A DNA stretch of 64,000 nucleotides from an uncultured Lachnospiraceae bacterium (lineage in GTDB: Bacteria; Bacillota; Clostridia; TANB77; CAG-508), in assembly GCA_964470175.1 (NCBI GenBank), contig CAYYBL010000001.1:4982-68981 (forward strand), written 5' to 3'. The notes below the pieces were generated by a model that was given only the letters and a program-made list of their open reading frames with translations, did no database searches and was not told the DNA's origin. Shown piece by piece: positions 10,545-64,000 of the stretch. The number at the start of each line of letters is the position of its first letter. The first letter of the stretch is position 1. The position numbers and the translations under genes are program-made.

Positions 10545-10617
10545 AGGTCTCCCCCATATTTTTCGTGACTTCATAGTAATATCCGAATTACATATGTTTC
10601 TTAATTTCTATAGGAAG

Positions 10618-12061: not shown

Positions 12062-12084
12062 TTTTTCTCCAATCTTATAGTTAT

Positions 12085-12114
12085 AGTATAGCAGAACAAA
12101 AGGGGACATGTAAA
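12085..12114 (-). promoter_or_regulatory. Candidate sigma-A promoter of the reductase-thioredoxin operon
   Basis: Minus strand reads TTTACA (12114-12109), an 18-nt spacer, then TATACT (12090-12085), about 25 nt upstream of the ATG at 12061. Confidence 0.5.
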
Positions 12115-12180
12115 GTAAATTTGTTTGCAATGCTGGCCGAAGGCCTTATATTATAGGAAGTACTTTGTGCTTCCTATAAC

Positions 12181-12215
12181 ACAAAAAAATTGGAGAAGAA
12201 TAAATTCTTCTCCAA
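12181..12215 (-). terminator. Rho-independent terminator after giant gene 1
   Basis: 11-bp perfect stem TTGGAGAAGAA / TTCTTCTCCAA (12190-12200 / 12205-12215) with a 4-nt loop. On the minus strand it is followed by TTTTTTTGT (12189-12181). It begins 14 nt after the stop at 12229-12231. Confidence 0.8.
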
Positions 12216-12228
12216 TCATTAATATAAA

Positions 12229-15200
12229 TTATTTAGTTAATACTTTTTTCTTGATAATCACTACTCCAGCACCAACTATAACAAGTCCTGCAGCTATAAC
12301 TACTAGAGCTTGAGAAATTATTTTGCCTTCCTTATCAGTCAAGCCATTTGGTGGTGAAAATGTGATAAGTTCTGTACTACTTGTATCTCTTTCAGCAACA
12401 GATTGTTCAAATTCTCCATATTTTGGATTTGTGTTACCTTGTGTTATCGTAATATCTCTTCTTCCTACAGTATTTTCCATTTTTACAACCTCTGCTATAT
12501 TATCAAATGATAAATTATTTGCATCTTTACTTGAAGCAACTACCTTTGTTATAGTAATATCAAGTACAGTATAGTTTGCTGTCGTATCTCCAACTCCTTC
12601 TGCTGGCTCAGACATATTATATGTAGTAATTGTACCTTGTTCTAATGTATCACCAGTCATTGGCACTAATTGTTGTTCAAATAGAGCATTAGATAATTGA
12701 TCATAATTATCAATACCATTTTCATTTCTTACAACACTAAGTTCATCCACACTTAGAACAACATTATTTCCTGAATCAGAAATATACACTCTATCATCTT
12801 TATCAAGAAGTTTATTTGTAGCAACAATATCTTTTGATAATAATTGTTCTCCATTTAATCCGTTTCCAGCAAGTTCAAGTACTGATGTGTTTTTCCATGA
12901 ATGATCAACCCTTCTATTATTAGTTGTATCAAATACTGCATCATTGTCAACATAATCAACAATTTGACGTACTCTTGTTGTAACTATTCTTAAAGTTTCC
13001 TTAGTTTTATCATTATATTGTCCATCATAATAATAGCTTCCAAGATATTTTCCTTCTTTTCCACGAATATTATCTTTTCGTGCATCTGCTATAACATCAT
13101 AAAGCGTTTCTCCACTCTTAACATCATCTATAGCAGCTATCCTTTCTGTCGTATAATCTACTTCACCTGCATTTAGAGCTGTAAATCTATAGTTAATCGT
13201 GATCGTTGTACCTTGCAATATTTCATCATCAATATCTACAAATCTAAAGTTTTGAATACCGTTATTATACTTACCTTCATCTTCTCTTATTCTACCATTG
13301 TAGCTTTGATCTTTATCTTCTACTTTTTCGATAGCTTTCATTAATTCATCACCAACAGATCTATCTTTAACCAAAGTAGTATTTGCTATCAAATATTCTT
13401 CTGAATTTGGTAATTTAATTAAAACTTTAGCATCAGAATCTTTACTATCGCCTATTGTATATTCTGTACCAAACTCTGCATCAAATATTGTCTTACCATC
13501 ATTTGTCGTAATCTCGATATCTTTTATTTCTTTATCAAGAATAATATTATTCTTAGGTCTTTCTATTAAACCTGTATTTATGTATTTTACTTCTTCTTTC
13601 CTTTCAGACTCATCTCCATTATATACTGGACAGATACCAACCTTTCTTGTATATGTTGACATTGCATATCCATCATATAATTCACTATGATATCCATTTA
13701 CATAGTTTGCTTCATTGAACATTTCAGAAAGCTCATTTGTAATTGTAGTAGATTTTGCCATCCCTTCTAGTCTTTGTACCTCATCATCTATGGCATATGA
13801 TTTCTTGCTATTCTCTGCTGATTCACCCGGAATATTTACTACCACATTTTCTTTTTTGTCATTATATATATATCCATCCGTATCCTTGTTCATGAAAATT
13901 GTTGCTTTGTAATCTTGTCCATTATATACAGCTGGTGTTTCATTATTTGCATCTTTATCATAGTTTGCTGTAAGTACTTCTGTACTTATTTGATTTCCGC
14001 CGTCTCTTGACTTTGCAGCGTTGAACATTTCACCTTTTTTGTTTAATGCAGTAGGTGCACCTGTATTTTGATCAGTATCAGCAAGAGTTGATTTATCTAT
14101 ACCATACTCTGATTTAACAAAGTAATCTCCGACAGGAATTTTCTTAAAGTTATATTGTCCAACTTTAACAACAGCTGAATCATATGATTCTATAACTTTT
14201 CCATCTTTGTCTTTGTTTACTCTTGACGATTCTGTTGTACTATCAAATCCAACTACATCCTCTACTGTCATTCCACCAAAGCTATTTAGTCCAACATTTG
14301 TAGGCCACAAGAAATCATAATCATTTGTTCCATCACTAAATGTTTCGACAAGTTCCATTGTTAGTCCACCTATTAGTGCTTCGTCATTTTCATCATATAG
14401 ACCATTTCCAACTGATTTTCCTTCTTCTTTGCTATCTTCCCATGCTAGACCAGAAACCACTTTATTTTGATTTTCATCAATCTTTAACTCTAGTACTGGT
14501 GCTGCATAAGTATCGTCCTCATATAATGATCTAAAGTTGAAATCATGTATATTTAGATTTGAAGGAGCTGAATTTCCATCAATCTTACCTGCAGTGCCTG
14601 AATATTCTTTATTATTACTATTAAATGATCTACTATTGTAGTATGTTGAATAACTTGCAATTTCAACTATATTTGATTTTGTACCAGTTTTTATTGCATT
14701 TATTACTGACTCAACTGAACTCTTTTCTGTCTTATATGTTACGTATATATTTATAAAGTCTCCACTTGATAACTTAGCAACATCATCTCCACTTGTACTT
14801 GGATTTGGTGAATCTGGTAGGTTCACTCTATACTTATCATAATACTTACCATCTGATGACAATATATCTTTTTGTACAACATTTGCATTATTCCAAACAA
14901 GATCATCTTGTTTTACGTTACTAATACCTTTTGTTATATATGGTTTTTCAATAGAAATACTTCTATTTTCTTCTTTTCCATTAACCGTTTTTACATCTTG
15001 TGTGAAGCTTCTCTCAACAACCTCCAATGTACTATCACTATAATCATCAATACCATTTATTCTCACATCATATTCTGCTGAATTATTTACGATTTGAATC
15101 TTATATTTTAGATAAACTTGCATTTCAGAATTTTCAATATTTTCTCCCAAAATTTCTTTTATCTTATCATAATCACTACTCATCGAATATATTTCAGATC

Positions 15201-18200
15201 TATAATAATAATCTGATGAATAAAGTCCAATTGGAGCTAAAGTTCTTTCAACTTTAGTTTTATCAATCAAATCTGCCAATTTATTAAATTGGAAAAATTG
15301 AGCATTTTGTTTTGTAACAACTGTAGCAGAATCTAGTACTTTTACTACAGATACATCTACATCTGGCCTATTAATCAATCCTAAATTAATATGTTTACTA
15401 TAACCCAAATATTTATATGTTACTTTTACTCCATCAACTGTCATTTCTCTTGATGGACTATCAGCCCTCAAGTGAACTTGGTTTGATAAAGGATATGCCG
15501 CATGAGCTGACTCCATTCCTATATATGTAGTTGCAGTTACCTTATATTGATCATAAGTATAGCCATTATCATCTGTTTTTATAATAGATTTCAATGAATT
15601 ACTTGAATTATCATTCCTATTAGATGAATCCATATTTCTTGCTTCATATGTCAAATCATATCCACTAGCATTTCCAATTGTAATACCAGATTCATTTAAC
15701 ACTTCTTTTCCTTCAATAGTTTCAAATCTTTCATTTACTTCTTTTCTATTTTTATCAATTGCAACAGAATCATTTGCATATTTAGCAACCATATCTGGGT
15801 ATTCATTTATACTTGAATTGTTTAAATCTGATATGTACATATCTGATTTTTTCTGATATGGATTAGATACATCTCCAACTTTTGCACTTGCCAAATAAGT
15901 TGTAGGCTCATATTTTTGTCCATTATACAAAAAGTCTACTTTATATTTTTCGTAAGCAAGTTCATAAAGAGTAATACCTTCTGCTTTCCAACTACCATCT
16001 TTATCTGTATAAATTGGTTGTGTAATTTCTTCACCCATTTCATCTCTTAAATCAGCTGGGCTACCATCTGCTGAATTTTTGACATAAACTTCAACTTTTT
16101 CTACACCTTCTTCTCCACTATCTAATTTACCATTCTTTCCAGTACCATTTTTATCCCATGGTGTTTCATCTAACCAAACTGTTCCTGAAAGATTTACTGT
16201 AAGAATTAGTTTTTTGTATTTTGGAAGCTCATTTATAACCGTAATTTCAAGCGGATCTCCGAGTTTACTATCAACTAATGTCTGTCCATTATTTGAAATA
16301 CTTGTATTCTTCCATCCAATGTTTGCATCTTTCTTAGAAAGGTCTTCATATACTTCTACTTGTGGTGCTTCATTACCATACCATGTAATTTCATCTGATT
16401 CAAATACACCACAATAATCATCACCATCTAATGTAACCTTAAATGTAAGAGCATCTTTTTCATCTTTAGTGCTATTATATTCGTTGTCATAAAGTTTACC
16501 CTTATATTTAAATTTTGTACCGTATATTTTGTAAGTCACTTCAAATGCTAAATCACTAGGATCTCCAATTAATTTTCTCTCTGCAACAATTTGTTTTCTG
16601 ATCTTAAACTTACCTTTATGTTCTTCGCTTTTATTTATAGCTACTACTGTGATAGCTTTTGCAATTGGATCACTTTCTTTTGAAGCATCTTCTACTACTC
16701 CAGTTGCATTATCTGATATTTCAACTAATTGATATCCCTCTGGAATATTAATCTCTTCAACTTTATATGTTGGAGCATTTTCCCCACTTTTCCATTCAAT
16801 TTTTTTAGTCCAATCCTCATTAACTTTTACGATTGGATTATATACTTCGCTATGACCATCTGCATATGTAATAGTTACTTTAAAAGTAAATTCTTCATCA
16901 CCATCTATTTCACTGCCATTTTCTGCTAATTTTGATACTTTTAAATATCCAAATTTTGGAACTGAATCATTTGTTGCTGTCACTGTAGTAGTAGTGTTCA
17001 TAGTTAAACTTCCACCTGCATTTGTGATACTTCTCTGTTTTGCAATTACAGTTCCATCTTTTTTATCTTTAACAACAACATCACCATTATCATCTGTAGT
17101 AAGTGATGTACCATCAAGATTTACCTCTTCTACTTTATATGTAGGCTCTGTCATACCTTTTTTCCATGTAATATCTGATAAATAATACTCAAAGTTGTTT
17201 CCTTCTACTAGCCAAACATCATCAATTACCATATCTTCATTTACATATGACTCGCCATTATATTCAAATGTACCATTTATCGTTACTTTAAATCTGAATT
17301 TTTGATTCTTTAATGAATCTGAAGTAAGCTCTTTTACAATTTTCAAATTTCCCTTATCTGGTACTGGCTCATCTTTTATTTTATTATGACAATTACCAAC
17401 CTCGACAACTTTATCAACTTCCAATGTTCCTGTATACACATCTGAATCACTTCCATCAAACTTGACAAAATATGTTCCTTCAGGTACATCAACTTCTTTT
17501 ACTGTAAATACTTTATCATCGGTAATCGTAATATCTTTAATTGTCTTTTCCCAAGTATATGTATTTCCGATTCTATTTGTTTTATCAAGCGTAACAGTAT
17601 TCGTTCCCCCATTATATGTAACATCAAATGTAAATACATAACCATCTGCACGTTCTTTCAACTTTTCTTTTAGTTCATCTGAAAGAGTTTCATCTATATC
17701 AAGTGTTTTAATTATTTTAATACTTCCATTATCTGTACCCTTATTAACACATATTACTTTGGCAACAGGTTCATCCTTCAAAACATTTGCAGCATTTTCC
17801 ATTTTATGTTCCTTGCTCTCATCTGTTTCTGTTTCAGATAAATCTTGCTCTATAACTTCATATAGTGGAGCTGTCTTTAATGGATCCCATTCAAATTTCT
17901 TTGATTTCCATGAACCATTACTTGTTTTACTTGCTTGTATTGATACAGTGGCATTTTCACCTCCTTCAATACTTCCATTATTATCTAAATAATATGTTCC
18001 TGGTTCTTTCACTTCACCATCGTAACCAAATTCACTTGTTGCAGTTATTTTAACTGTAAACTTGAATGTCTTAGTTTCATCAATTTCATATGAAGGATCG
18101 ACTTTCTTAACAATCTCTAATGATGAATTTGGTATATCTATCTTATTAAAGCAATTATCAACTTCAACTACTGTATCTGCTTCTAATATTCCTTTATATT

Positions 18201-21200
18201 CATCTGGATTACTTCCATCAAACTTAACAAAATGCGTTCCAGCAGGTACGTCAATCTCTTTTACAGTAAAGTCTTTGTTTGACTCATTTATTTTAATGTG
18301 TTCAATTGTCTTTTCCCATGTATATGTATTTCCAACTCTATTTGCTTTATCAATTTCAACAGTATGTGTCTGTCCATTATATTTAACTTCAAATTTAAAC
18401 TTTAATTCATCAACACGTTTGTCTAAATATTTTTTCTGGAATTTAGAAAGTGTTGTTTCATCAATATCAAGAGATTTCCTTATTTTAATGTCACCATATC
18501 GTACTGTTGGTCCATTAGTACATATTACTCTAACAGCATCTCCTTGTATATCAACCAACGAGCCACTACCATTTTCAATTTCATACTCTTTGCCTTCATC
18601 AGTATCTGTATCAGGTAAATCTAACTCTGTTACTTCATAATCTGGAGATTTTACTTTTACACTCCATCTAAATAAACCAGACTTCCATACACCTATTTCT
18701 TTCTTGCTTGCCTCAATAGCTACATAAGTGTTATTATTTGCATCAGCTTTTTTAACTAAGCCTTTTACACTATCTAAATAGTATTCTCCTGCATCATATG
18801 GAGTGCCATTGTATTCAAATTTCTCACTTGCTGTTATTTTAACTTTAAAATGGAATGTATATATCTTTTCATCATCAACTTCATCAGCTTCATATGACTC
18901 AGCTACCTTCTTTGTAATTTCCAAATATCCTCTATGTGGAGCACCTATTTCATTTTCAAAGAAAATGTTTGTTGATTTTTTTAATGTTTCTCCTTCATCA
19001 TTTTCCTTTACAATTCCTTCAAGGATTGGTGTATCTACTTCATCTTCGCCTTCAATCCAAGCTCTTTTGAAGAAAACACCTTCACTTACTATCTTATTTA
19101 CTATGAATCCACCATCATCCATAAGCTCTTCTACTTTAAATTCAGGTGCAACTTCACCTTTTGAAATATCCCACTTAAAAACTATACCTTGTTCTTTAGA
19201 GTCCCACTGCCATGTCCATGTATCACCTTCTTTTGTTGGATAAACTTTAATTTCTTCATCGAAATATTTAACATCAGTTGGTTTTTCTATTTCATTACCA
19301 CTTGCATCTATTGCCTTTACTCTTTGTGTAACTGTTACATGGAAATTAAATGCTATTTTTTCAATGTCACTTTCGTAATCATCAGCACCTTGAAGAGTTT
19401 TTATTAAGTTTATTTTACCATATTTGTAAGTTCCATTTATTGTGTTATCAATAGTTATATCAAATGTGTTTGTGGTACTTGGCTTTAATCTACCACTTGA
19501 TCCTTCTGATGTATATGTTGGAATATTTAGACTATATCCATCAGGTAAAACTACTTTTGAAGTATCCTCACTTGCTTTATATTCTGGAGCTTTGTCAAAC
19601 TCGCACCACTCAATTTCTTTATCTAATACACATACATTTGAGCCAGGTAGATATCTTCCTTTTCCAGGATTTTCTGGATCTTCTTCAAGTTTTGGTGTTA
19701 TAACTATTCCTTTTTCATATTTTGCCTTATCCTCTTCTTTTACTGGATTACCATCTTCTCCAAGCTCAACATATCCATCTCTTGTAAGTCTGATATAGTG
19801 ATCTCCATATTTTAGATTTTCTCCATATGAAAATCTTCCTTTAATGTCAACATAGAAGTAATAATCTCTATTTCGCAATATTTCCTTTGATTCGTCTTTA
19901 TATACGCCATTTTCTATATCAAAATTATCAACAGAACCTAAAATCTTTTCCAACTTTATTTTAGTTGTTTCTGTATCAATTTTATTTATACATGTATTTG
20001 TTATTTCATTTAATACATTATCATTATTTCTTAAGCTACCAGAAACTTCTGTTTTTCCTGATTCACCATTAAAGCTAACAAAACTTGTTCCTTCTGGTAC
20101 CTTAATTTCCTTTATTTTATATGAATGATCTCTCTTATCAAGTTTATACCATGTATATCTATCAGACACCCACGTAATTTGATATTTAGTTCCATTCTTT
20201 TTGCCATCTCCACCATGAAGTACAACATCTTCCTCTTTATTATCAACCGTTACTTTAAATGTAAAGTCTAAGTCTTTAAGCTTACTTATAACAAAGTCTC
20301 TTGTAGTTTCATCTGCAAATTTAGATAAATCAATTTCCTTTATTAATCTAAGTTTCGCACCTTCTGATTCATCATACTCATTTTCAAAACTTGCACTTGA
20401 AATATTTGTCAAGTTTTTCTCATCAGGCTCTGGTTTAAAATCATTTCCTGTATCTGTTGTAGTTGTACCTATAAGTTCTCCAGATATGATATATCTACCA
20501 TCAGCTGTAAGTTTTGCATCAGAACTAAATCTTGTTTCTCCAGTTTCATCTTTTAATTCTTCTAATTCAAATTTTGGTGCATTTTTTGTATACCATATAA
20601 TTGGTATTTCTTTTCCATTTTCATCAACCATAACATAATGATATTTACCATCTGCTTTTATTGTTATTGGTTTATTCTCTGGATTTGTATATGGCGTATT
20701 TTCTGTATAAGGAACACCATTTATATAAAAATCTCCTGTAATCTTTACATTAAATTTAAATTCTTTATTTTTTATTTGTTCACTTAATTCACTGCGCGCA
20801 CCCTCATCTGCTTCGGGTTCTTTCATTGTTTTTTGAATTCTAAGATATCCATATTTCTTTTCAAGCTTTTGGTTTGTAATGCGGAAGGTGATTCCCTTAT
20901 TTGCCTGAAATTCACCTCTAATAACGAAATCGTCTCCCAAAGGTACTTCTACTTCATTACCATTAGCATCTAAAATATATGCCTTAATTAAACGATATTT
21001 GTCTGCTGATACAGTTTCAGCATCGAATACTTCAGTAATTTCATATGTAGGATTTTTAATTTTACTATCATCTGCTACGGCCTCATATGCCCAAGCAAAA
21101 AACTTTGATCTTGAAGTACGAGCTTTAGGATCTTTTCCAACTGTTACAACAACTGGTGGAAAATTCATATTTTCAAAGTTATTTCTATACACACTTTTAC

Positions 21201-22863: not shown

Positions 22864-22864
22864 A

Positions 22865-27943: not shown

Positions 27944-28000
27944 CTAATACTCCTCCTATAACAACAATATATTTATATTATTTAATAAACATACAAGTCA

Positions 28001-28029
28001 ATTATACACTCTTATGTAAACTTTTTCAA
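28001..28029 (-). promoter_or_regulatory. Strong sigma-A-type promoter of module 1 (partner 1 + giant 1)
   Basis: Minus strand reads TTGAAA (28029-28024), a 17-nt spacer, then TATAAT (28006-28001), about 58 nt upstream of the ATG at 27943. Confidence 0.6.
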
Positions 28030-28383
28030 GCATTTGTGTATATTTTTTTGGCTTTTTTTCAATTTTTAATATTTTTGTGTTATTTATTTCTTTGTATTTC
28101 TGTTAATTATTTGTCCTTTTGAAAAGTTTTTTTGCAAAAAAAGTCTTTCAAAAAAACAACATTTAACCCTGTTTCAGCTATATTTTATACTTATTTATAC
28201 GTAATTCATATAACTTTATTATTACAATAATTTGAATATTTACTTATATTTTCGTACGTTATACGGAAATATGTTTTCCTAAAATTATATTTTTTTATAT
28301 CTTTTTGATTATATTTTTACAATATTCTTTCTATATTTATATATATTGTTACAATTTGATTTCAAAGATGTATATTTTGGTAG

Positions 28384-28413
28384 GGATATAGAGGATAAAA
28401 TTCCTCTATATCC
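28384..28413 (-). terminator. Stem-loop downstream of giant gene 2 (probable terminator; weak U-tract on the minus strand)
   Basis: 12-bp perfect stem GGATATAGAGGA / TCCTCTATATCC (28384-28395 / 28402-28413) lies 17 nt after the stop at 28430-28432. The T-run is on the plus-strand side (ccgattttttat), so minus-strand termination efficiency is uncertain. Confidence 0.45.
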
Positions 28414-28429
28414 TTACCGATTTTTTATG

Positions 28430-46402: not shown

Positions 46403-46403
46403 A

Positions 46404-51785: not shown

Positions 51786-51815
51786 TTCTCAAATCTCCTC
51801 TTTTTTGCCCCTATA

Positions 51816-51835
51816 TAAACATACGCATATGTTTA
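51816..51835 (-). promoter_or_regulatory. Perfect 8-bp inverted repeat (TAAACATA-N4-TATGTTTA) just upstream of the partner 2 RBS; possible operator or 5'-UTR hairpin
   Basis: The sequence taaacatacgcatatgttta at 51816-51835 is self-complementary and lies 31-50 nt upstream of the ATG at 51785. Confidence 0.35.
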
Positions 51836-52050
51836 CACCATATATAGATATTCTAGTCTTAAATTAATCTAAAATACATTAAGTTCTTATTACAAAAGGC
51901 TTTTAAAGATTTTTATATCTATTTTATTTTACGGATACATATATTACCTTCTCTTTATATTCAAATATAAAATTTAAATTACTTTTTTGACTCTTTTTAT
52001 TTTCAAAAATTATTAATTTGCTTATTAAATGTTTCCCTAAAATATTATTT

Positions 52051-52098
52051 AATTAAAAAAATAAAACTCACCGAAAACCTTGTTTCAGTAAGTTTTAT
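52051..52098 (-). terminator. Rho-independent terminator after giant gene 3
   Basis: On the minus strand: ATAAAACTTACTG / CGGTGAGTTTTAT forms a 13-bp stem (two G-U pairs) with a 12-nt loop, followed by TTTTTTAATT. It lies about 85 nt after the stop at 52182-52184. Confidence 0.7.
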
Positions 52099-52181
52099 TT
52101 TATTTTTATAATGTTATATTATTATGACACCCCTAGTCTTTTAAAATAGCTTATTTTGTTCTTCTACCCTTTTTTATATTA

Positions 52182-55100: not shown

Positions 55101-58100
55101 TGTCATATATCTTGTACTTGCCATCATAGAAAGGATACTACTTATTTTACCATTACTATATGACCCGAGCGTAGACTTGTATTCATCATCATTAAGTATT
55201 GTTCCATTATATTCCAAAAATTCCTCTGATGACTTATTTCTATCTTGCACTGACACAAAAGATTCTTTTCTAGAATTACCAATCTTTGATTTTGAAATAA
55301 TTGCAAATTTATTGTTATATTTTTCTCTTACATCATCTTCGTGATTTCCATTATCCTCACTCAAAATATTCTTATTTTCTATAAATCCTCTTCCACCATT
55401 TAATCGTGACAAAACCTCTTGTACGTAGCCACTAGTTCCTCCAGGCTGATCATGTACAGAATCTTTCTCTTCAAATTTTTGACCATCATATACATAATAT
55501 ATTTTATAATTATGATAATATAAATCTCTTGTAGGTATTCCATATACATTCCATTTTCCTTTTGAATCAATTTTAATAGGACAACTTGTTTTTTTACCAA
55601 ACTTATCTCTGTAATCAACAAAATTACCAAATTCATCCTCAATAAACACTTCTATTTCATTTCTATCTTTTTTACTTGCTGCGCCTCCATCTATTCTCAA
55701 TTCACCGCTCATCTCACTAGTTAAGTCTACTTGCTTTATAAAAGTACTTTGTACATATACACTTGAAGAATACATATTTTTTGTACCGCCTACAAGTGCA
55801 CTACCATTTGAAGATAAATTAATGCAATCCCAATGATCAAGCTTTTGATTATCAACCTCTACAGAAACAATTGGTGTATCACCCTGTAAATATTTTACCT
55901 CAAAAGATTTGTTATCGCTTTTAAGATTTTTATTATCAAAATTCAATTCTACATTATTATCATTCATGTCATTTTTATTAAAGACAAATTTAAATTTTTT
56001 CTGATGTATATCATCACCATTTATTGCCTCTTTAAGTATCCTACTATCTTTTAAATTAATTTTTGTACTTACAAGCTTTACATTATAGACTATTGTTACA
56101 CTTGCATTTTTAAATGTAACTCTATCACTATCCCTATCAAAAGCATTTTCATCAGTTCCAGCTGAATTACTAGCAACTTCAAAAGCATCACCCTTATAAT
56201 CAAAAGGTATTACTTCATACCATAATTCTTCACCTGGATTATATACAATATTGTTTGAAATCCATCCATTAGAATCTAGTGTCACATTAAAGTTTATATA
56301 ATCATAGTGAAATGCATCAGATTTTCTCTTTTTCTTTATTATCACTAATGCATAATTATATCTATTATTTCCAAGACCCTCATTGCCACTTAGTGATTCT
56401 CCTAATTTTATATTAACAGTTTTTGTATAAAGCTCATTTCTTACAGAAATAACATTTTCCATTGCTTTATTTAGTCTTCCAGCATTATTTGAAAATCTTA
56501 AATTCTTACCATCATTTTCTAATCCTTCAATAGTCACACTATAAGTTGGGGCACTCGCATCATCCTTCCAATTGAAATAAATTGGTCTTACTGATGTATT
56601 TACTGGATTTCCCACATTATTTATAGCAATTTTTTGTGTACCTTTTACCTTAGCAGAAAATGTATTTTTACCATTTACTACAGATGCATAATTTCCATTA
56701 CTATCTATGTATTCATATGTGCCTCTAATAGTAATTTTATATGTTAACTCTTTGCTTAGTACATCTTCATCTGTAAATTTGTTATCAATAACAATTGTTC
56801 TTGAAAATGGTAAAATATTATTTTCATAATCTATTTCCGTTTCATAGTTCACATCAAAGGAAGAAGGTTTTTTTACATTAGAAATATTAGTATATAAATT
56901 ATAGCCATTATCTTGATTTCCACCTTCATTTTCATATTTGTAATACAAAGGTTTTTCATATGGACTCACTTTAACGCTAATATAATCACCATTAGGAATA
57001 AATTTATCAAAATAATAAAAACCTGTATCCTCCTCTATTGCTCTACTAGGTTTTATAGATGCATCTTGAACTCCTTTTCTAAATCTATTTATACCACCTT
57101 TTAGAATTCCATTTTCTTTTGTATTTTCACCATATATTGCTGATACTTTTTTACATCCATACCCTTCCACATATAAATTATACGTGAATTGATTTTTTTG
57201 TATGTTTTCCTCTAGAAAAACATCATCCCAGCTATTTCCATTTAAATTTATTTTATTTTGAATATTTACATCTATTTTCTTTTCTTCAATACCCTCTGGA
57301 GGATCATATTCAATTCTATAATCTATTCCATTTCTTGTATAATCTAGTATTACGTTTATTATTTCGTTATCATCACATTCATTTAATTGGCCTAAATTTG
57401 TGTTCCAGTACTGCGGTTCTTCATTTGTTGATTCTAAAAATGATCTTATTTCAAATTTTGTAATATTATTATCATTCCAAGAAAAAGTATCCGTATAGAT
57501 TTCACCAGAAGTTTGGTTTTCATCCATTTCAATAGTGCAAAAATCATCTCTATCTTTTACTTCTTTAATGGTTCTATTCAATAAATTTGCAGGATCTTTG
57601 TATGATAGAATGCCCTTTTCATCTGCACCTATTACACCTGCTTTTATGTGTATTGTCTCACTTCCTTGCTCTTTATCTCTAATTGCAACTATGTGTATTT
57701 TTGCTTTATTACTACTTTCTTTATTTTTGTATTTTACCTTAAATTTGTAAGTATCCGTTGCTCCATCTTCAAGTGAATATGTAGCCCCATAGGTATCATT
57801 TCCATCATGTCGAAGTGTATTATTGTTTTCTTCAACGGTTGTCGTTCCACCTATATTTCTTAACCATTTGTCATCAGTCGTAATTCCTATATTTTTACTA
57901 GATGCCATATACTTTATTGATATATCTTCTTTTTTACACAATTTTATATTCTGACTTTCATATGACCAATTGGTTCCATCCCAATTTGCTTTCACTATCG
58001 ATGACTCAATTCCATATATATCAATTTTAAAATATAACGGAATTTTTTCTTTATCAATGTTATTTACAATTCCATCTGGTGAAACTTTAATAGAAAAACT

Positions 58101-61100
58101 TGTATTTACATTACATTTTCCTTTTTCAAAATATGTGTCCACTATCGAAAAAACACCTGTTGGAGAATCTATTGCATCCAGTCTAGTTTCATCAGGACTT
58201 GTTCCTTTTTCTATATATTGAACAGGGGTTATGCTCCTTGATACATAGTCTTTATATTCTTTTTCATATTCCACCCATACTTTCGGTGCATCATCATCCC
58301 ATGAAAAATAATTTGATTCAAGTATCTCTATAAAATCATCTCTTAAATCAAGCTTAATTTTACATTTTTTTCTTTCATCTGACAGACTTTTATCTGATTT
58401 TAAATAGTATGTTTTACTGCTATTATATTTTTCGTTGTCATAAGTGAAATTACCTTTTATCGCTATATATGTAATGTTAACTTTTTCTTCTGCTAAAATA
58501 GAAGATACTTTTTCGTTATCTGCTCTTTGTATAAGTTTTATTTTACTTTTCTTTCCACTTCCATATGATGCATAGAAAAAAACATCTGTGCTTTCACATC
58601 TTTCATCTATTCCTGTATGATCTTTATCATTTAATTTAGTTGATTCATTTATAGATATTTCACACAATTCACCTGAAACTTCGTTATCATGATTAGATCC
58701 AGCATCTATTTTTGATAGTCCTTCAGCAAAATCTACTTTCATTCCAACAGGAAGTTTTGACTTGTCAAGAGTAATTGTGTAAATAGGTGTTTCATAATAC
58801 GTAGGATTCCAATATATATCTGGACTAGTCCACTCCCATACATAATTACCATCATCCGCAACTTGTGATTTTACGCGTAAATCTTCTATTTTGAGTAAAT
58901 TAACACCTGGTTCAGATGGATCACTAGCGAATTTATCTGTTTTTCTTTTCGCCGAAACATTTACATCAAATATAAATTCAAAATCCTTTTGATCCTCTTT
59001 CAAATAGTTTTCTAATCCATACACATACTGTTTTAAGAAAATGCGTCCCTCTAGTATTTCCTCTTCATCTTCTTCATCTGTAATCGAATCCCTTACATAA
59101 TTTGTAAATTCAAATTTCATTGAATCTGCGTATCTCTTATCTTTACTATTAGCATTTGGTGCTTCCAAATAGCCTTCTTTACATCCAATTGTTTGGTTAC
59201 ACAAAATATTTACAAGATCTTGAGATTGTTTCTTTATTTTTTCAATATCTTGTTCTACTATGTATTTCGGTGGCATACCTTTTACCCAACAAAATTCACC
59301 TATTTCTCCACCTTGTACACAGTTATTATCATTTTCTGGATTGCTAAGATCCAAATTATTTAAATTAATTGAATATCTTTCATCTTCACTCACTCCACTC
59401 GGTGATGCGTAATCAAATACTCCACCATCTACAATTTTATAATGTTTTTCACTATTTCCAAACCCCATATTTTTATATGAATACAAGCCATCAACTTCTA
59501 TGTTAAAATAAATAGTTTTATTTTTAAGAAGGTTCCTAACCTTACTTCCAGGATTTCCGACAAGTGGCGATGCTATATCATAATTATTTGTTCCAGAATC
59601 ATCCTTATGTGGTGAAATCAAGTTTTCAGATATAGTAAAAGTTCCTTTTTCATACACTATTTTGCTATAAAATCTAATTGGTTTACTCTTTGCTTTTTCT
59701 GTAAAATCCTTAAATGTTCCAGTTGCAACATTTCCATGAATAGTATATCCATCTTTATTATCTCCTCTTTCAATAGCTATACCAGAAAATAGTGTAGACT
59801 CATTACTTAAGCTTTCTTTTATAGTATATGAAAGTCTATTACCAAAAAGCCATTCTTCATTTGCGCTTTCCCAAATCCATTTATATCCAAATCCTCCAGA
59901 AGAATAATCATATGCTTCTCTACTATTTTTGTCTAAAATAACTTTTTGAGTATCTGTTCCAATTGTAATCTCATACTCATACTTAAGGTGATCTTTTAGC
60001 AAATCAAAAACTTGTTCATTATTCTCTCTTTTTTTAATAAGCTTGTCATCTTCTTCAAGTATTTTTTCTATTTTTATCTTTCCAGATTCTTTTCTATGAT
60101 TTGATACCATTTTTGCAATAGTATAGTACTTTTCTTCATTATTATGATCTTCATCATTTTGTTCACCAACTTTTACTACCGTGCCAGTATCACCTATTGT
60201 TTCTTGACTATTTGGAATTGCAGCATAAGTATTTTTTGGAAGTCCTTTTAATGCATTAAGCATACATGTACTTTCGCCTTCATCTTTTACCCTTTCAAAA
60301 TCACTAGTGTCTATATCGTTATACATTGCAGTTCCAATATATTGACTATTATTAATAAAAGTATCATTATCTACAAAACTATTATCTCCTTCTGAATCGT
60401 TTTCATTACGGGCCTCAAGTCTTTCAACCGTATATTTAGGTGCTTCATCATTTTTTGGCCAAATAATTTTATCAGTGACATATCTATTAGGTACGCAATA
60501 ATTATTAGGACCAGTTCCATCATAATAATAGTATTTATAATCTCCAGAAGTAGAATTCATTTCTCCATATACAATATCTTCATCCTCTTCTCTACCCGAT
60601 ACTACTATAAGCTTTTTATAGGAATTATTCTTATATACTTCACTACCATACAAAAACATTCCTCCATTCCCTGGAGTGATAGTAAGTATATATGCTTGCA
60701 CGACATCTTTTCCAGAAAGAGAATATATACTATTATCTAGAGAATCATCTTTTTTTATAATATTATCTATGCATATATATCCATAACTTAATTCTGATTC
60801 TCCATCAGTATAATCACCTCCATACTTTATACTATAATTTGCACAAAAATTTATTTCTCCATCCTCTAAATTTCCTTCAATTTTGGATGTTTTATTTAAA
60901 TCATAAGTTTCAGTCCTTCCAATTTGTCCTTTTTCTAAAACCAAATTAGTTTTTGTCATGCTCTCAAATTCAATGAATTGATCATTAGGTTTCTTTTCAA
61001 CACTTAATGTATATGTTGGTTTGTCTGATCCTTCCCAAACATAAACTCTTGATGTAGTACTTCCATTTATTGGTACATCAATTTCTTCTTCAGTATAATC

Positions 61101-62387
61101 AACTTTTTTTACTTCGCCACTACTTTGTAGCTGCTTTGCTCCTTTTACTTTTAGCTTATACTTCACAAACGCATTTGAATTTTTAATTTCATACCCATCT
61201 GATTCAAGCTTTGAATCAATTGATATTATACCCATATTTAAATTTACATATTTGAAATTTTCTTTTTCAACATATTTTACATATGAATTTTTTACATATA
61301 AAATACTGCCATAATTTTTATGATTATTGCTATCTTCTATCTCAAAAAATTCACCATCAACTACAGGTTTTTCTGATCTAACAACGACCTTAAAGTTTTT
61401 AATCTTTGTAACTGGATCAGTTTTATTATCCTTAAGCTTTATATAAAAAATATCTCCAGATTGTGGTAGACTTTGGTATTTAGAATCATATCCTACTATC
61501 AATTTTTTACCATTAGATTTAGTAGCTTTAACAATACTAAAAGTATCCTGTACATTATCGCTTTCCTCCATATGAAGTACTAAACCATCTGGATCTTTAT
61601 CTGTATATAATATGAATTGTCTCATTTGTTGAACTTGATAATTGTGAGTTCTATCATATCCATCCCATGATACAGAATATGGTCCAATTAAATAAAAAGG
61701 AGTGCTTTCACTTGTATCATCATATGTAATTGTAACATTATCAAAATCAACATTATGTTTTTTACCAGTAGCCCACTCTATATGTGGTTCAACTATATTA
61801 TCAAAATCCTCTGATGTGTTAATTCTGAAATACGAGTTTAAGTCTTTCGCCTTGTCATATAATTGATTTATTTCATAGTTTGTATCTATAAGACTACCCG
61901 CATTACGATGATGGTATTCATATTTCCACCACGTTTTTTGCAATATTTCATATCCGTGTCTATTTTGATACTTTTCAATACCAAATCTTGAAACAAGGTA
62001 TCTTTCTCCGTAGTCCTTCTTAAATTCTTCAGAGCGTCTAGTTCTATCATTATTAGGTATAATTTTAAGCTCTTTATCCTTATTTTCTTCTTTATTAAGA
62101 GTTTCCCAAATACTTTTGGTATATTTATCAAGAACAATTGATGAATATTTGTCAACATCACCATATTTTATTATAGCACCTTCTTCTAAGTCTATTCCTT
62201 TATCCAATTTGTAGTCAGATGTGTACTCATACATTTTACTACGATATCCACCATCTGGAATTTCACTTGCCTTTACTATCAAATTTTCCCCTTCATCAGC
62301 AAATGACTTGTATACAACCAAAAGTCCAAAAACAATGCACATTATAAAGCATATTAAGGAGGTTAATCTTTTAATAAATCTTGCCAT
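52182..62387 (-). CDS. Giant surface protein 3 (3,401 aa): signal peptide, divergent Cys-free head, irregular stalk modules, shared C-terminal region, TFMPPTG motif + TM + charged tail
   Basis: ATG 62387-62385 lies 3 nt after the upstream TAG (62391-62393), with GGGGAGGTG upstream. N-terminus: MARFIKRLTSLICFIMCIVFGLLVVYKSFA/DEG. The C-terminal third is colinear with giants 1 and 2 (IERPENKIFLDQEIKSIKLTTNTG, GIQNFKYINIDFDILQGTTVEINYEIAAFNIGDEDY, KTRVRQIASFVDNDLSVD, FTEIVKYENTAGRRD, ASEIITFMPPTG). Confidence 0.9.
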   Translation of the reverse strand: MARFIKRLTSLICFIMCIVFGLLVVYKSFADEGENLIVKASEIPDGGYRSKMYEYTSDYKLDKGIDLEEGAIIKYGDVDKYSSIVLDKYTKSIWETLNKEENKDKELKIIPNNDRTRRSEEFKKDYGERYLVSRFGIEKYQNRHGYEILQKTWWKYEYHHRNAGSLIDTNYEINQLYDKAKDLNSYFRINTSEDFDNIVEPHIEWATGKKHNVDFDNVTITYDDTSESTPFYLIGPYSVSWDGYDRTHNYQVQQMRQFILYTDKDPDGLVLHMEESDNVQDTFSIVKATKSNGKKLIVGYDSKYQSLPQSGDIFYIKLKDNKTDPVTKIKNFKVVVRSEKPVVDGEFFEIEDSNNHKNYGSILYVKNSYVKYVEKENFKYVNLNMGIISIDSKLESDGYEIKNSNAFVKYKLKVKGAKQLQSSGEVKKVDYTEEEIDVPINGSTTSRVYVWEGSDKPTYTLSVEKKPNDQFIEFESMTKTNLVLEKGQIGRTETYDLNKTSKIEGNLEDGEINFCANYSIKYGGDYTDGESELSYGYICIDNIIKKDDSLDNSIYSLSGKDVVQAYILTITPGNGGMFLYGSEVYKNNSYKKLIVVSGREEDEDIVYGEMNSTSGDYKYYYYDGTGPNNYCVPNRYVTDKIIWPKNDEAPKYTVERLEARNENDSEGDNSFVDNDTFINNSQYIGTAMYNDIDTSDFERVKDEGESTCMLNALKGLPKNTYAAIPNSQETIGDTGTVVKVGEQNDEDHNNEEKYYTIAKMVSNHRKESGKIKIEKILEEDDKLIKKRENNEQVFDLLKDHLKYEYEITIGTDTQKVILDKNSREAYDYSSGGFGYKWIWESANEEWLFGNRLSYTIKESLSNESTLFSGIAIERGDNKDGYTIHGNVATGTFKDFTEKAKSKPIRFYSKIVYEKGTFTISENLISPHKDDSGTNNYDIASPLVGNPGSKVRNLLKNKTIYFNIEVDGLYSYKNMGFGNSEKHYKIVDGGVFDYASPSGVSEDERYSINLNNLDLSNPENDNNCVQGGEIGEFCWVKGMPPKYIVEQDIEKIKKQSQDLVNILCNQTIGCKEGYLEAPNANSKDKRYADSMKFEFTNYVRDSITDEEDEEEILEGRIFLKQYVYGLENYLKEDQKDFEFIFDVNVSAKRKTDKFASDPSEPGVNLLKIEDLRVKSQVADDGNYVWEWTSPDIYWNPTYYETPIYTITLDKSKLPVGMKVDFAEGLSKIDAGSNHDNEVSGELCEISINESTKLNDKDHTGIDERCESTDVFFYASYGSGKKSKIKLIQRADNEKVSSILAEEKVNITYIAIKGNFTYDNEKYNSSKTYYLKSDKSLSDERKKCKIKLDLRDDFIEILESNYFSWDDDAPKVWVEYEKEYKDYVSRSITPVQYIEKGTSPDETRLDAIDSPTGVFSIVDTYFEKGKCNVNTSFSIKVSPDGIVNNIDKEKIPLYFKIDIYGIESSIVKANWDGTNWSYESQNIKLCKKEDISIKYMASSKNIGITTDDKWLRNIGGTTTVEENNNTLRHDGNDTYGATYSLEDGATDTYKFKVKYKNKESSNKAKIHIVAIRDKEQGSETIHIKAGVIGADEKGILSYKDPANLLNRTIKEVKDRDDFCTIEMDENQTSGEIYTDTFSWNDNNITKFEIRSFLESTNEEPQYWNTNLGQLNECDDNEIINVILDYTRNGIDYRIEYDPPEGIEEKKIDVNIQNKINLNGNSWDDVFLEENIQKNQFTYNLYVEGYGCKKVSAIYGENTKENGILKGGINRFRKGVQDASIKPSRAIEEDTGFYYFDKFIPNGDYISVKVSPYEKPLYYKYENEGGNQDNGYNLYTNISNVKKPSSFDVNYETEIDYENNILPFSRTIVIDNKFTDEDVLSKELTYKITIRGTYEYIDSNGNYASVVNGKNTFSAKVKGTQKIAINNVGNPVNTSVRPIYFNWKDDASAPTYSVTIEGLENDGKNLRFSNNAGRLNKAMENVISVRNELYTKTVNIKLGESLSGNEGLGNNRYNYALVIIKKKRKSDAFHYDYINFNVTLDSNGWISNNIVYNPGEELWYEVIPFDYKGDAFEVASNSAGTDENAFDRDSDRVTFKNASVTIVYNVKLVSTKINLKDSRILKEAINGDDIHQKKFKFVFNKNDMNDNNVELNFDNKNLKSDNKSFEVKYLQGDTPIVSVEVDNQKLDHWDCINLSSNGSALVGGTKNMYSSSVYVQSTFIKQVDLTSEMSGELRIDGGAASKKDRNEIEVFIEDEFGNFVDYRDKFGKKTSCPIKIDSKGKWNVYGIPTRDLYYHNYKIYYVYDGQKFEEKDSVHDQPGGTSGYVQEVLSRLNGGRGFIENKNILSEDNGNHEDDVREKYNNKFAIISKSKIGNSRKESFVSVQDRNKSSEEFLEYNGTILNDDEYKSTLGSYSNGKISSILSMMASTRYMTHPYCKGTNKRINLSKDGYRYDKDLNMEKWNYSNSYDKLAFKSIYYMQHINLNLSTRTDVEVKTSNKFKEARVFLNGDTQTFNSSDRFNIKLNSTDYYYRDEVYRQNDSFASYEKNNRNLMEEMSIELDYVYTIENKSNYALGINEIENYVTNSLTVDNINGGTFNTIPNYRSYENIDLNKTVFKFAGGKIINPKGKVDIEVTFKVNKDTINGIKDTLDIAESIENIFEISSYSTYKCENGVPIKDSNGELVYAGKMSNNFTPGNLNLNMLSDNRKLLMEKDTARSKKVNITLNNKNNNDNVAGYVYETDGKNDHPKKAPIGGMTVQQLERMRDTSGKSNVVYDFLWATDTLLDVYGGNTFSDLTGYGSTVETSREQGEGITGKYVFSNIPNKNMVVNVLYGIDKGTLDSTIGTTGDPVALKDSGAFYAKDTTGGTVLTANFEKDAYTSTPAVYNGQDFKSAIDVDGNYGDDEVMRLRAMSNAFTFINENTNVLHKANDRAAIHQKVFDDYGMTIRGNEIRTRANNKGNYSDICIIERPENKIFLDQEIKSIKLTTNTGQVILNAEYDIQYNIETLDENNKESKRGKTVKVIDETRAIVAHVTPVSNRSINLDQIQQLYKEEYKTTNGTKMWGKTYKYGTGIQNFKYINIDFDILQGTTVEINYEIAAFNIGDEDYVPAWIDELFNPSSTTDFGNKVVRYNKIESKIDDLKKSNVKNGKITFGDNDNGIGKYFYTGVIENNVDRIVKTRVRQIASFVDNDLSVDLSKNNTNNQYWKTTSAIELNGNGVDARRLIEKDLIRVDSIKDKNEISYVEKDKSNLILSVDDFGSEVSNETFEACTVPFGKHDENNPYRTKMNLVVTKVLSASDFEDMSYDTFTEIVKYENTAGRRDDAIYIGNTDPSLEIFEEATKERDSSASEIITFMPPTGIMQKEKERKRALIVCIISIIAEVVTVYTLKVGYLDKYANKDDTKF

Positions 62388-62390
62388 TTT

Positions 62391-64000
62391 CTACACCTCC
62401 CCTTCGCTATCATCATTTTTATTTTGTATATATCGTTTTCGTTTCAGATATAGAGTATAAATAACAACTATCATAATTGTAACTCCAATGATGACTAGTA
62501 TTGTACGTACAGCCTTAGCTCCTGTTGAAATTGTTATTATTACATCTGAATTTGAAGCATCATCTTCAGATTCAAAACGATTTCCGGCTATTGAATCAAT
62601 ATCAGAAATCCCGTATATATTGTAATCTTCATATATCTCCGCTAGATTACTCACTATTCCCGTGTTTTCTTCTGTCATTTTTTTAGAAAGAACAAGTTTT
62701 ACCTCTTTTTGTTCTCCAGGAACAATAAGTTCATTTTCTAGTACATTTGTATAAAGATTTCCATCATTTCCACCATACCACTTAATATTTTCTTTAATTG
62801 ATGAATTAAACTCCATATCATTTGGCACAAAATCTACAATTTTTTTAGCATATCCTGCAACCTTTCCAGTATTTTTAACCCTCAAAGTGTACTCTACATA
62901 CACAGTACTATCTTTTAACTCGTTTGGCATTATTTCTTCTTTAGCAAGGGTTACACTTTCAAATGTAGTATTTTTAACAGAACTGTTTTGAGTTGTTATT
63001 TTAGTAATAACATTTTGAAGTTCTAAGTCAAATATATCAGCATGTATTAATCCTATATCTATATTTGATACACTCTTTTCATTTACTACAATAGTGTCTG
63101 AAATTGCAACATTTTTATATACACCATCTTGCTCAACTTTGCTAGGCATAAAATCTGAATTCGAAATTCCAGATATATTCTCTTTTTTATATGTAGTAAT
63201 ACCATACTTTTTAGTATTATATTCTAATATTACATAATACTCTCCACTCTCCACTCCAGAGAAATTATAGAAACCTACATCATTTACACCTATCTTTTGT
63301 TTAATGACACCATCGTTTGCATTTACAAGAAGAACTTCCATCTTATCATAATCATCAATTTTTCCTTCATCATCATGAGCTCCATTTTTGTTTACATCTT
63401 CCCAAACTGTACCATTTACTCTGTATGTTTTGTTTATGTTTTCCTTTTCTTCTGAAATAATAGATGTACTTTGTCCAACTTCACTTTGAGTTTCTGTTTC
63501 TTGAGGAACATCTTCAACGTTAATCTCTTCTTTTGGAGCATTTTCCTCACTTATGACTTCCTCCTCAATTCCTTCAGGTTCATATGGATACTCATCTATG
63601 TTTGAATCCTCCACCTTTTTCTCAATTACATAAGAAATGTCGTTTGATTTTATTAAGCCTTCATCTTCTGTATATATATTTGCAGAATTTGTAACAGTTT
63701 TTTCTTCTTCATCAATATTTCCATCTGCAATCGCATATATTTTAACATCGACTTGATTTCCAGCTTCTACGTGAATACTTTCTGTGATAGAACTTTCACT
63801 GATATTTTCTTTTTTTACTAGATTACCTTCACTCATATATTCATAACCAATAATCTCCATACCATCAGTTACAGTATCTTCTAAAATAACATTACCCGCG
63901 TATGCACTTCCAGCATTACTTATTCTTACATTAAATGTGACTATATCCTCATCATTTAAATATGTATTTGATACATCAGAAATTTGTTCAATATCCAAAT
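62391..64000 (-). CDS. Partner protein 3, C-terminal >=535 aa only (the 5' end lies beyond the window end); ends TISTGA + TM + basic tail
   Basis: The frame is open to the window edge. The track's 'M' at 63998 is a TTG codon, most likely internal. DUF11-like segment: DEDIVTFNVRISNAGSAYAGNVILEDTVTDGMEIIGYEY. SdrD-B-like segment: VNGTVWEDVNKNGAHDDEGKIDDYDKMEVLLVNANDG. C-terminus: ...IYGISDIDSIAGNRFESEDDASNSDVIITISTGAKAVRTILVIIGVTIMIVVIYTLYLKRKRYIQNKNDDSEGEV. Confidence 0.85.
   Translation of the reverse strand, partial: LDIEQISDVSNTYLNDEDIVTFNVRISNAGSAYAGNVILEDTVTDGMEIIGYEYMSEGNLVKKENISESSITESIHVEAGNQVDVKIYAIADGNIDEEEKTVTNSANIYTEDEGLIKSNDISYVIEKKVEDSNIDEYPYEPEGIEEEVISEENAPKEEINVEDVPQETETQSEVGQSTSIISEEKENINKTYRVNGTVWEDVNKNGAHDDEGKIDDYDKMEVLLVNANDGVIKQKIGVNDVGFYNFSGVESGEYYVILEYNTKKYGITTYKKENISGISNSDFMPSKVEQDGVYKNVAISDTIVVNEKSVSNIDIGLIHADIFDLELQNVITKITTQNSSVKNTTFESVTLAKEEIMPNELKDSTVYVEYTLRVKNTGKVAGYAKKIVDFVPNDMEFNSSIKENIKWYGGNDGNLYTNVLENELIVPGEQKEVKLVLSKKMTEENTGIVSNLAEIYEDYNIYGISDIDSIAGNRFESEDDASNSDVIITISTGAKAVRTILVIIGVTIMIVVIYTLYLKRKRYIQNKNDDSEGEV

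Follow-up and report, generated by a model that had tools for sequence, protein, structure and literature searches.

Several described kinds of Gram-positive surface protein can be compared with a gene array found in an uncultured Lachnospiraceae bacterium. The array lies in a 64,000-nt stretch of contig CAYYBL010000001.1 (assembly GCA_964470175.1; hereafter the window) and consists of three copies of a gene pair, each encoding a 'partner' (P1, P2, P3) directly followed by a 'giant' (G1, G2, G3). On balance, the evidence tilts slightly toward each pair being a co-translated, two-component surface fibre or adhesin in which, we infer, partner and giant cooperate. A sequence-only reading of the same DNA had set the module apart from known adhesins. 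This separation does not hold: by similarity, both classes belong to the broad Gram-positive fibrillar-adhesin superfamily, because the partners carry CLIPPER/DUF11 and SdrD_B domains, the giants have CnaB/SpaA-like stalks and the two share a homologous anchor module. Every building block is of a known kind (CLIPPER, SdrD_B, CnaB/SpaA-like repeats, sortase-like signals). What is new is the obligatory partner-giant operon with its embedded Shine-Dalgarno (SD) sequence, the class-specific non-canonical motifs on a shared anchor, and two large unannotated protein families. In line with an earlier statement to this effect, no description of the pairing was found in the literature searched, itself an incomplete body.

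The giants resemble the thioester (TIE) proteins in that they have an N-terminal head with family-conserved Cys ([YFL]C..-type) and Gln (Q..(hydrophobic)W) residues, a CnaB-type stalk with a Lys/Glu/Asn pattern, and a sortase-like C-terminal signal. VPPTG, the motif of the thioester-bearing tip adhesin Cpa that is handled by a class B sortase (PMC3019223), is close to the [TSM]PPTG of the giants. The giants differ in being 4-10 times longer, in having an extra conserved base of ~1,100 residues and in lacking a Pfam TED match, a PDB profile match or a confident model, and G2 and G3 each miss one of the Cys/Gln residues; moreover, no obligatory upstream partner gene is described for TIE proteins. 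The partners resemble the CLIPPER (DUF11) fibrillar adhesins, elongated all-beta surface proteins in which CLIPPER is an experimentally verified isopeptide-bond stalk domain (PMC12617251), and they match CLIPPER above the curated cutoff. They differ in having just 2-3 CLIPPER domains, all C-terminal, in an N-terminal part of ~1,050 residues without a Pfam match, and in forming a family of fixed length that is paired with a giant gene.

Staphylococcal Sdr/MSCRAMM proteins are similar to both classes in their single wall-proximal SdrD_B-type domain, and PDB profiles match SdrD and UafA; here, however, there is no A-region (DEv-IgG) match, no Ser-Asp repeat and no LPXTG, and the genes are not solitary. 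Sortase-assembled pili are likewise made from adjacent, co-transcribed isopeptide-domain proteins with differing sorting motifs, one of them with an adhesive head, but the present locus has no cluster sortase, shaft pilin or recognised pilin motif, and its subunits are themselves multi-thousand-residue fibres. Finally, CD2831 and CD3246 of Clostridioides difficile, both SrtB substrates, are clostridial surface adhesins that end in PPKTG/SPKTG, a transmembrane (TM) segment and a basic tail, and a thioester is predicted in CD3246. These proteins are much smaller, solitary and regulated by a cyclic di-GMP riboswitch, whereas no Rfam element, cyclic di-GMP riboswitches included, was found in the window at gathering thresholds.

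Gene pairs, their junctions and their conservation

Every long open reading frame (ORF) in the window is on the minus strand, the GC content is ~30% and the GC skew is uniformly negative. The ORF listing for positions 12229-64000 contains three head-to-tail pairs, as had been proposed, in the form of six ORFs. In the order of transcription, these are P3 (62391 to beyond 64000; the gene exceeds the window end and its last 535 aa lie within), G3 (52182-62387; 3401 aa), P2 (46404-51785; 1793 aa), G2 (28430-46402; 5990 aa), P1 (22865-27943; 1692 aa) and G1 (12229-22863; 3544 aa, with its ATG at 22863). Together the modules occupy ~52 kb of the source genome. Gene lengths called on independent contigs agree with the window ORFs, G2 again being 5990 aa long.

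Stop and start codons nearly touch within each pair. The P1/G1 junction (22861-22880, minus strand) reads GGGGGTGTT TAA T ATG and the P3/G3 junction (62385-62402, minus strand) GGGGAGGTG TAG AAA ATG, with spacers of 1 and 3 nt, respectively, and the P2/G2 junction (46400-46420, minus strand) also has a 1-nt spacer. The partners end in GGG GGT GTT TAA (P1), AGA GGT GTT TAA (P2) and GGG GAG GTG TAG (P3), and at all three junctions an SD-like, GGAGGTG-type sequence lies within these last codons and ends 4-8 nt ahead of the giant ATG. At many related loci a conserved partner end, ...KGGV*, is encoded by AAAGGAGGTGTTTAA. The partner end (G-G/E-V-stop) thus holds the SD-like sequence, and the partner tail is therefore dual-coded as the ribosome-binding site of the giant.

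Terminators had been proposed after the modules, and hairpins were found at all three places as consensus matches: a rho-independent-type terminator after G1 (12188-12217, minus strand; 13-bp stem, then a T run), an unstranded hairpin with a 19-bp stem just after the G2 stop (28377-28420), and a terminator-like hairpin and T-run after G3 (52058-52101, minus strand). A sigma-70-like promoter upstream of P1 (28001-28029, minus strand; 11/12 match to the consensus) is treated here as suggestive, because such matches in this region are not above the shuffled expectation.

The partners are colinear paralogues, with P1 and P2 35% identical over 1611 aa and each of them 37-38% identical to P3 over ~520 aa. 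Among the giants the paralogy, as stated in the sequence-only reading, is C-terminal, extending over 1100-2400 aa at 27-31% identity: G1 and G2 share 30.5% over 2412 C-terminal aa (and, at the N-terminus, 24% over 477 aa), G1 and G3 31% over the C-terminal 1107 aa, and G2 and G3 28% over 1395 aa. A recent triplication was rejected. P1-type orthologues in other genomes (≤48% identity, compared over the last 535 aa in a scan biased towards P1) are closer to P1 than P2 and P3 are (35-39%), and the paralogues are therefore old.

The exact P1 protein occurs on 10 metagenome contigs, with the order G2-P1-G1 in 6/6 places shown (six ENA assemblies), and no DNA tandem repeats were detected in the window. 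Collapse of a repeat during assembly was therefore rejected, given this concordance of independent assemblies, the missing tandem repeats and the deep divergence of the copies (27-38% identity). With, in addition, five uninterrupted ORFs of 1692-5990 aa in 30% GC DNA, it is exceedingly improbable that the array arose in assembly or is made up of pseudogenes, the split of P3 being the point in favour of this. On the source contig (L091), P3 is read as two ORFs of 950 and 920 aa, with a frameshift ~1.1 kb past the window end. The frame changes at L091 7150-7330, inside a conserved ...ILGRFPFKGMKDFIDG / DLTFGNTV... segment, and a homopolymer run is not involved. Five contigs carry G3, four of which were collapsed for mostly identical neighbouring proteins, and the split was read on the source contig; either a true pseudogene or an error in sequencing may lie behind it.

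The partner family comprises >270 full-length homologues. The best 120 listed are 1669-1871 aa long and, two near-identical proteins apart, 39-48% identical to P1, mostly over 80-100% of its length. In a one-genome-per-species collection, partner relatives are encoded in 292 stretches, and the best 80 of these all come from uncultured Clostridia-type gut metagenome-assembled genomes (MAGs) of rabbit, mouse, ruminant, human and other samples, a few of them titled Clostridium sp., Clostridiaceae, Eubacteriales, Lachnospiraceae or 'uncultured bacterium', with Candidatus Scatovivens included. The relatives in these 292 places have not been studied. For the adjacency count, 77 loci were fetched, and the count covered the 73 partner genes that had 1.5 kb or more of sequence after them. 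A large same-strand ORF follows at -32 to +25 nt in 72 of the 73, in several chromosomal contexts, and the earlier proposal of a genuine, translationally coupled two-gene module withstood this check. Most of the downstream ORFs match the C-terminal query from G1/G2 and many also the N-terminal query, and the abutting order holds down to 27-30% partner identity. Tandem partner-giant-partner-giant arrays are common, and the repeated unit is always the pair.

Lookups that started from giant-class proteins gave the same arrangement: in L007 a 1699-aa partner stops 1 nt ahead of a giant-class gene of 1931 aa, in L010 a 1692-aa partner is followed by a 1730-aa giant-class gene, and each of two very distant giants (P0037 and P0039) has a partner directly upstream. 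The order in L012 is giant-partner-giant, and a VWA-headed giant relative (P0034) is solitary. Immediately upstream of the partnerless giant-class gene of L012, a 1089-aa protein with Peptidase_C1 and Big_3 domains is encoded (6458-9727, plus strand); a Peptidase_C1 domain is also present in one distant head-domain relative. At many loci, the source contig included, the array is found directly downstream of mreC-mreD-pbp2-minC (L091 1-4128; L016 4747-8903; L092, L093 1-1554). In other MAGs spoIIE often comes after the array, and in the source genome trxB and trx take this place.

Domain architecture of partner and giant

Pfam matches nothing in the first ~1,050 partner residues. The matches obtained, two CLIPPER/DUF11 stretches and one SdrD_B domain, all fall in the C-terminal third. 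In P1, CLIPPER was located at aa 1065-1159 (nt 24467-24751) and SdrD_B at aa 1351-1448 (nt 23600-23893). P2 runs from a signal-like N-terminus through a beta-sandwich rod, two CLIPPER domains and SdrD_B to ..LVKTGD, a TM segment and a basic tail, and the in-window part of P3 has DUF11/CLIPPER (2.7e-9) and SdrD_B (1e-7) Pfam matches ahead of ..ISTGA, a TM segment and a basic tail. Against a cutoff of 24.6 bits, CLIPPER (PF01345) scores 63.3 in P1, 42.1 in P2 and 37.8 in P3, and TIGR01451 matches at 36.3 bits against a cutoff of 24; PF01345 does not match the giants. Among PDB sequence profiles, those of the SdrD and UafA B domains are the only ones to match the partner.

An AlphaFold2 model of P1 aa 1-1100, built with 30 homologues in the alignment, is all-beta and shows about ten tandem beta-sandwiches at a mean pLDDT of 80.9. 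Foldseek returned generic multi-immunoglobulin (Ig)/macroglobulin (MG) proteins only, with global TM-scores ≤0.16; these were alpha-2-macroglobulin and complement MG domains, integrin alpha legs and mastigonemes. As modelled, the partner is a length-conserved rod of ~14 beta-sandwiches: about ten Ig/MG-like domains, CLIPPER, CLIPPER, SdrD_B and a terminal sandwich. The possibility that the partner is an enzyme or a chaperone was rejected on account of this confident all-beta multi-sandwich rod in the N-terminal 1100 residues and its generic Ig/MG matches. The N-terminal domains contain invariant lysines, for example in GYLK (K90).

The giants gave no significant or meaningful match in Pfam, NCBIfam or PDB-sequence searches, and, being almost invisible to Pfam and NCBIfam, they are probably missed in catalogues of gut-colonisation factors. 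Their relatives were collected with the C-terminal 1104 aa of G1 as the query. This conserved base (12232-15543, minus strand; 1104 aa) ends in FSPPNG, a TM segment and KKKVLTK (signal at nt 12232-12357) and is common to 41 database proteins, most of which cover 94-100% of the query. Many of the base homologues are 'mini-giants' of ~1,600-1,930 aa with the same head and base and a short stalk. These relatives do match Pfam, with CarboxypepD_reg in 18/20 mini-giants, SdrD_B in 14/20, SpaA in 5/20 and Cna_B in 2/20, and the same four families also recur when the distant head-domain relatives are included. Across the family, the giants range from ~1,300 to 6,000 aa, whereas the partner length is constant.

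Between head and base, the giants carry stalks of diverged repeats of ~110-230 aa. The stalk of G1 (16213-21345, minus strand) has 12 such repeats of 117-167 aa each, as delineated with jackhmmer and hmmalign; G2 has at least 23 (aa 842-4605, nt 32588-43879) and G3 at least 7, and none are found in the partners. The repeat consensus, G.l.I.K ... W...P.Y.v.E ... G ... N, holds what we take to be the Lys, catalytic Glu and Asn arrangement of CnaB/SpaA-type isopeptide domains. The stalks are composed of CnaB/SpaA-like, isopeptide-type repeats, in which Lys-Asn cross-links probably form.

The head of G1 spans aa ~40-450 (21514-22746, minus strand) and includes ILCCQ (Cys120/121) and EQQAWW (Gln225). 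In the head family, the Cys and the Gln are each kept in at least 90% of sequences, and the position four residues beyond the Gln is always a Trp. The Cys occurs in the contexts LCCQ, LCSQ, FCMQ, FCKE, YCDD, YCIQ and FCAN, and the Gln in EQQAWW, VQYAWW, IQDAVW, IQKALW and IQTASW. Thioester domains have the motifs [YFL]C(hydrophobic)(hydrophilic), TQxx(hydrophobic)W and (hydrophobic)Q(hydrophilic)(hydrophobic)(hydrophobic) (PMC6194298). The head motifs resemble these, and the conserved Gln may match either the bond-forming Gln or the TQxx(hydrophobic)W helper motif. Among the giants in the window, G1 alone retains both residues: the G2 head (44843-46402, minus strand) has the Cys (ILCRQ) and an Ala in place of the conserved Gln (HIAMAWW), and the G3 head homologue (60828-62387, minus strand) has no Cys.

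Pfam scans of 49 proteins (G1, G2, G3, 20 mini-giants and 26 distant head relatives) gave no TED family. A PDB profile search with the head gave no thioester-domain protein, the only matches being spurious ones to FtsX. The AlphaFold2 model of G1 aa 1-520 has a mean pLDDT of 46, with values <50 across the relevant region, and Foldseek found no match for this low-confidence model at E ≤ 0.001. The head family is small: a word-indexed homologue search with the head alignment returned 2 proteins, and an exhaustive one 313 clusters among 1.84 billion representatives. Whether the G1 head forms a thioester is a close call on these data, and we lean mildly toward it not doing so.

A shared anchor module with class-specific motifs

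Inspection of the translations showed a C-terminal motif, a hydrophobic stretch and a basic tail in 6/6 window proteins and in ~70 related pairs. A signal-like N-terminus, with a basic start, a hydrophobic core and a small-residue cleavage-like site, was likewise seen in P1, P2, G1, G2 and G3. The two-ended signal arrangement ascribed earlier to all six proteins thus stood in full for the tails and, at the N-terminus, for the five proteins on which it was judged, since the start of P3 falls beyond the window.

The two classes use different motifs, a feature noted before and kept across ~70 loci despite wide divergence. Those of the partners are LIRTGE (P1), LVKTGD (P2) and ISTGA (P3), and those of the giants SPPNG (G1), TPPTG (G2) and MPPTG (G3). 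Over the ~70 pairs, the partners follow [hydrophobic].[hydrophobic][K/R/V/A/S/Q]TG[E/D/K/N..], without a proline, and the giants [T/S/L/I/M/V]P[P/T][T/F/N/Y]G or [E/D]PTG.

Behind these differing motifs lies a common module. In P1 it extends over aa 1351-1692 (22868-23893, minus strand) and consists of the SdrD_B domain, the terminal beta-sandwich, an acidic linker, LIRTGE, the TM segment and the basic tail. Alignment of this region with the giant-class C-terminus by hhalign gave a probability of 99.7% and E = 5e-27, with large insertions on the giant side. The aligned part spans an SdrD_B-like domain, the terminal sandwich, the acidic linker, the sorting motif, the TM segment and the basic tail, and it places the partner IKTGE opposite the giant PPTG/PPFG. 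The terminal sandwich has a motif common to both classes, N.AEI..Y.N..G..D..S.P.N. Outside the anchor module, BLASTP found no significant similarity between partner and giant. Partner and giant are therefore ancient paralogues in their wall-proximal parts and unrelated distally.

The PP[TFN]G of the giants resembles clostridial and streptococcal sortase motifs; the partner motif, ..KTG, has no proline. In C. difficile, PPKTG/SPKTG is cleaved by SrtB (PMC4591827). Sortase anchoring of the giants is plausible, and the partners may stay membrane-anchored or be processed differently. The Pfam gene listings of the window and the related loci contain no PF04203 sortase, and among other curated C-terminal sorting models (for example exosortase-type CTERM) none appeared on the tails. 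A Lachnospiraceae-labelled MAG encodes a 276-aa sortase-like ORF (...IVGHNYRN...ITLITC...) at ~1 kb downstream from its giant gene (L071 21331-22158, plus strand).

Proposed cooperation of partner and giant, and alternatives

In the reading that we prefer, each module would be a two-gene operon giving rise to two Sec-exported, C-terminally anchored fibrillar surface proteins. Ribosomes loaded on the SD sequence within the last codons of the partner would translate the giant, and because of this embedded signal the two proteins would be made together. They would then be placed next to each other in the envelope and function as a single two-component fibre or adhesin, with the partner as conserved base or companion rod and the giant as the long, fast-evolving, target-binding fibre. 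The giant would present a distal head (with thioester-type covalent binding possible in G1) on a variable CnaB/SpaA-like stalk, which would rise from the wall-proximal base of ~1,100 residues. The three diverged modules would provide three fibre variants. Gene structure, paralogy, conserved adjacency, coupling signals, domain composition and the common anchor module are established by the sequence data; surface location, anchoring chemistry, the isopeptide and thioester bonds and any contact between partner and giant are inferred from them, as are the fixed stoichiometry and the base/sheath plus stalk-and-tip roles suggested earlier. If the pair does form one fibre, the construction of very long surface fibres by Gram-positive commensals could be studied on a defined genetic unit, enzymes could be sought that process the two new sorting-signal variants, and protein-ligation technology might gain a new covalent-binding head-domain family.

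Several observations weigh against this reading of the module. Co-transcription of two paralogous surface proteins would equally keep them adjacent within one clade, and contact between partner and giant is presumed. The shared site after mreCD-pbp2-minC means that part of the conservation is simple vertical inheritance, although the two genes also stay together in other chromosomal contexts and when they are duplicated. One of the giants in L012, P0030, has no upstream partner gene, and P3 looks frameshifted beside an intact G3, so that, if the frameshift is real, a giant persists without an intact partner. The thioester assignment of the head failed to be confirmed by any profile or fold test, and the conserved Gln and the Cys are missing from the heads of G2 and G3, respectively. 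On the side of anchoring, no curated sorting-signal model reaches its cutoff on partner or giant tails, the best sub-cutoff scores being 15.4 against 23.5 bits for Rumino_NPXTG and 12.3 against 15.9 for LPXTG_anchor, with a weak PF00746 match in 1/20 mini-giants. Of the 1371 flank ORFs scanned for sortase motifs (window and ±10 kb flanks), only the one in L071 was sortase-like. In some giants the motif is PPFG, PPYG or PPNG, in which the canonical scissile position is occupied by a residue other than Thr. The proline-less NVQTG of C. difficile is reported to be uncleaved by SrtB (PMC5569036), which makes it doubtful that the partner motif is processed by a sortase.

Some of the same observations are accounted for if partner and giant are independent adhesins that share an operon, that is, distant paralogues with the same anchor, co-regulated, separately anchored and directed at different targets, with no interaction between them. 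The homologous anchor modules suggest an ancient tandem duplication of one surface-protein gene, and each class appears self-sufficient, having a signal peptide, a rod and an anchor of its own. The partnerless P0030, the solitary P0034 and the apparent frameshift in P3 fit such an arrangement, as does the confinement of much of the synteny to one conserved chromosomal site. It is less easily reconciled with an order, abutment and embedded SD sequence that 72/73 loci preserve, even where partner identity has fallen to 27-30% and across several neighbourhoods that are unrelated to each other, or with duplications that always copy the pair. A constant partner length against giants of ~1,300-6,000 aa also fits complementary roles better than redundant ones. 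We therefore regard independent adhesins as unlikely, while giving them an appreciable chance. Were the proteins merely co-expressed, hardly more would be gained than a useful annotation for a large dark protein family.

Two further possibilities join the proteins covalently. In the first, which is improbable but of consequence, the module would be an unrecognised covalent two-protein fibre of gut Clostridia, with a head of a new thioester ('harpoon') class invisible to Pfam, in which PP[TFN]G and ..KTG direct distinct steps that either join giant to partner or split their placement between wall and membrane. If true, this would be a defined 1:1 base-plus-fibre organelle, unlike pili and solitary adhesins. 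The second, which we rate a little lower still, is a sortase-built tip-base fibre, in which a sortase would cleave the PPTG-type giant motif and join its Thr to a partner lysine, with the partner fixed to the envelope via ..KTG, much as in heterodimeric tip-base pili or in the attachment of Cpa in Streptococcus pyogenes. The two class-specific sorting motifs are reminiscent of tip versus base pilins; the Cys/Gln head, CnaB-like stalk and xPPTG of the giant mirror Cpa with its thioester, VPPTG and class B sortase (PMC3019223, PMC4282584); the invariant lysines of the partner N-terminal domains would offer acceptors; and expression is coupled, in a strictly 1:1 manner by our reading of the junctions. 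However, neither the window nor any of ≥70 loci encodes a pilus-type sortase within or beside the module, the ORF in L071 being the single sortase-like one. In addition, a canonical pilin motif was not identified, the subunits are 10-50 times the size of pilins, and the Thr needed for the acyl-enzyme is missing from giants with PPFG or PPYG.

There is very little to recommend a spore-surface or exosporium appendage in place of a vegetative-cell fibre: the host clade sporulates and spoIIE is just downstream of the module in many MAGs, but the flanks are ordinary housekeeping synteny (mreCD, pbp2, minC, spoIIE; trxB and trx downstream in the window), the signal peptide and sortase-like signals indicate export into the wall through the membrane of the vegetative or mother cell, and there is no similarity to known spore-appendage families.

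The genes around the array are for the most part of familiar kinds. Recurrent neighbours of ~700 aa and ~830 aa were considered as components of the system and rejected, as they are PBP2 and SpoIIE, which belong with mreC, mreD and minC to a housekeeping synteny. In other MAGs, the stretch that separates minC from the first partner repeatedly contains one or two small divergent ORFs of 112-194 aa without a Pfam match, all on the minus strand (L016 8906-9289; L049 8508-9517; L092 1639-2426; L093 1520-2360), which might be regulators; they are absent from the 277-nt minC-partner gap of the source contig. Directly downstream of the G1 terminator, trxB (11192-12130, minus strand) encodes a thioredoxin reductase-like protein (Pyr_redox_2) and is followed by the thioredoxin gene trx (10848-11165, minus strand); both are probably unrelated housekeeping genes. 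Antisense within G1, a 192-aa ORF (18062-18640, plus strand) is most likely spurious, being located in low-GC DNA and having no other support. A fourth giant ORF, unrelated to the pairs, takes up 3-10607 (minus strand; >3535 aa) and exceeds the window start. Its features are a signal-anchor-like N-terminus, 17 DUF285 repeats (Pfam E = 3.6e-237), DUF6273 and a hint of an EndoS-type leucine-rich repeat, and it is probably another huge surface protein.

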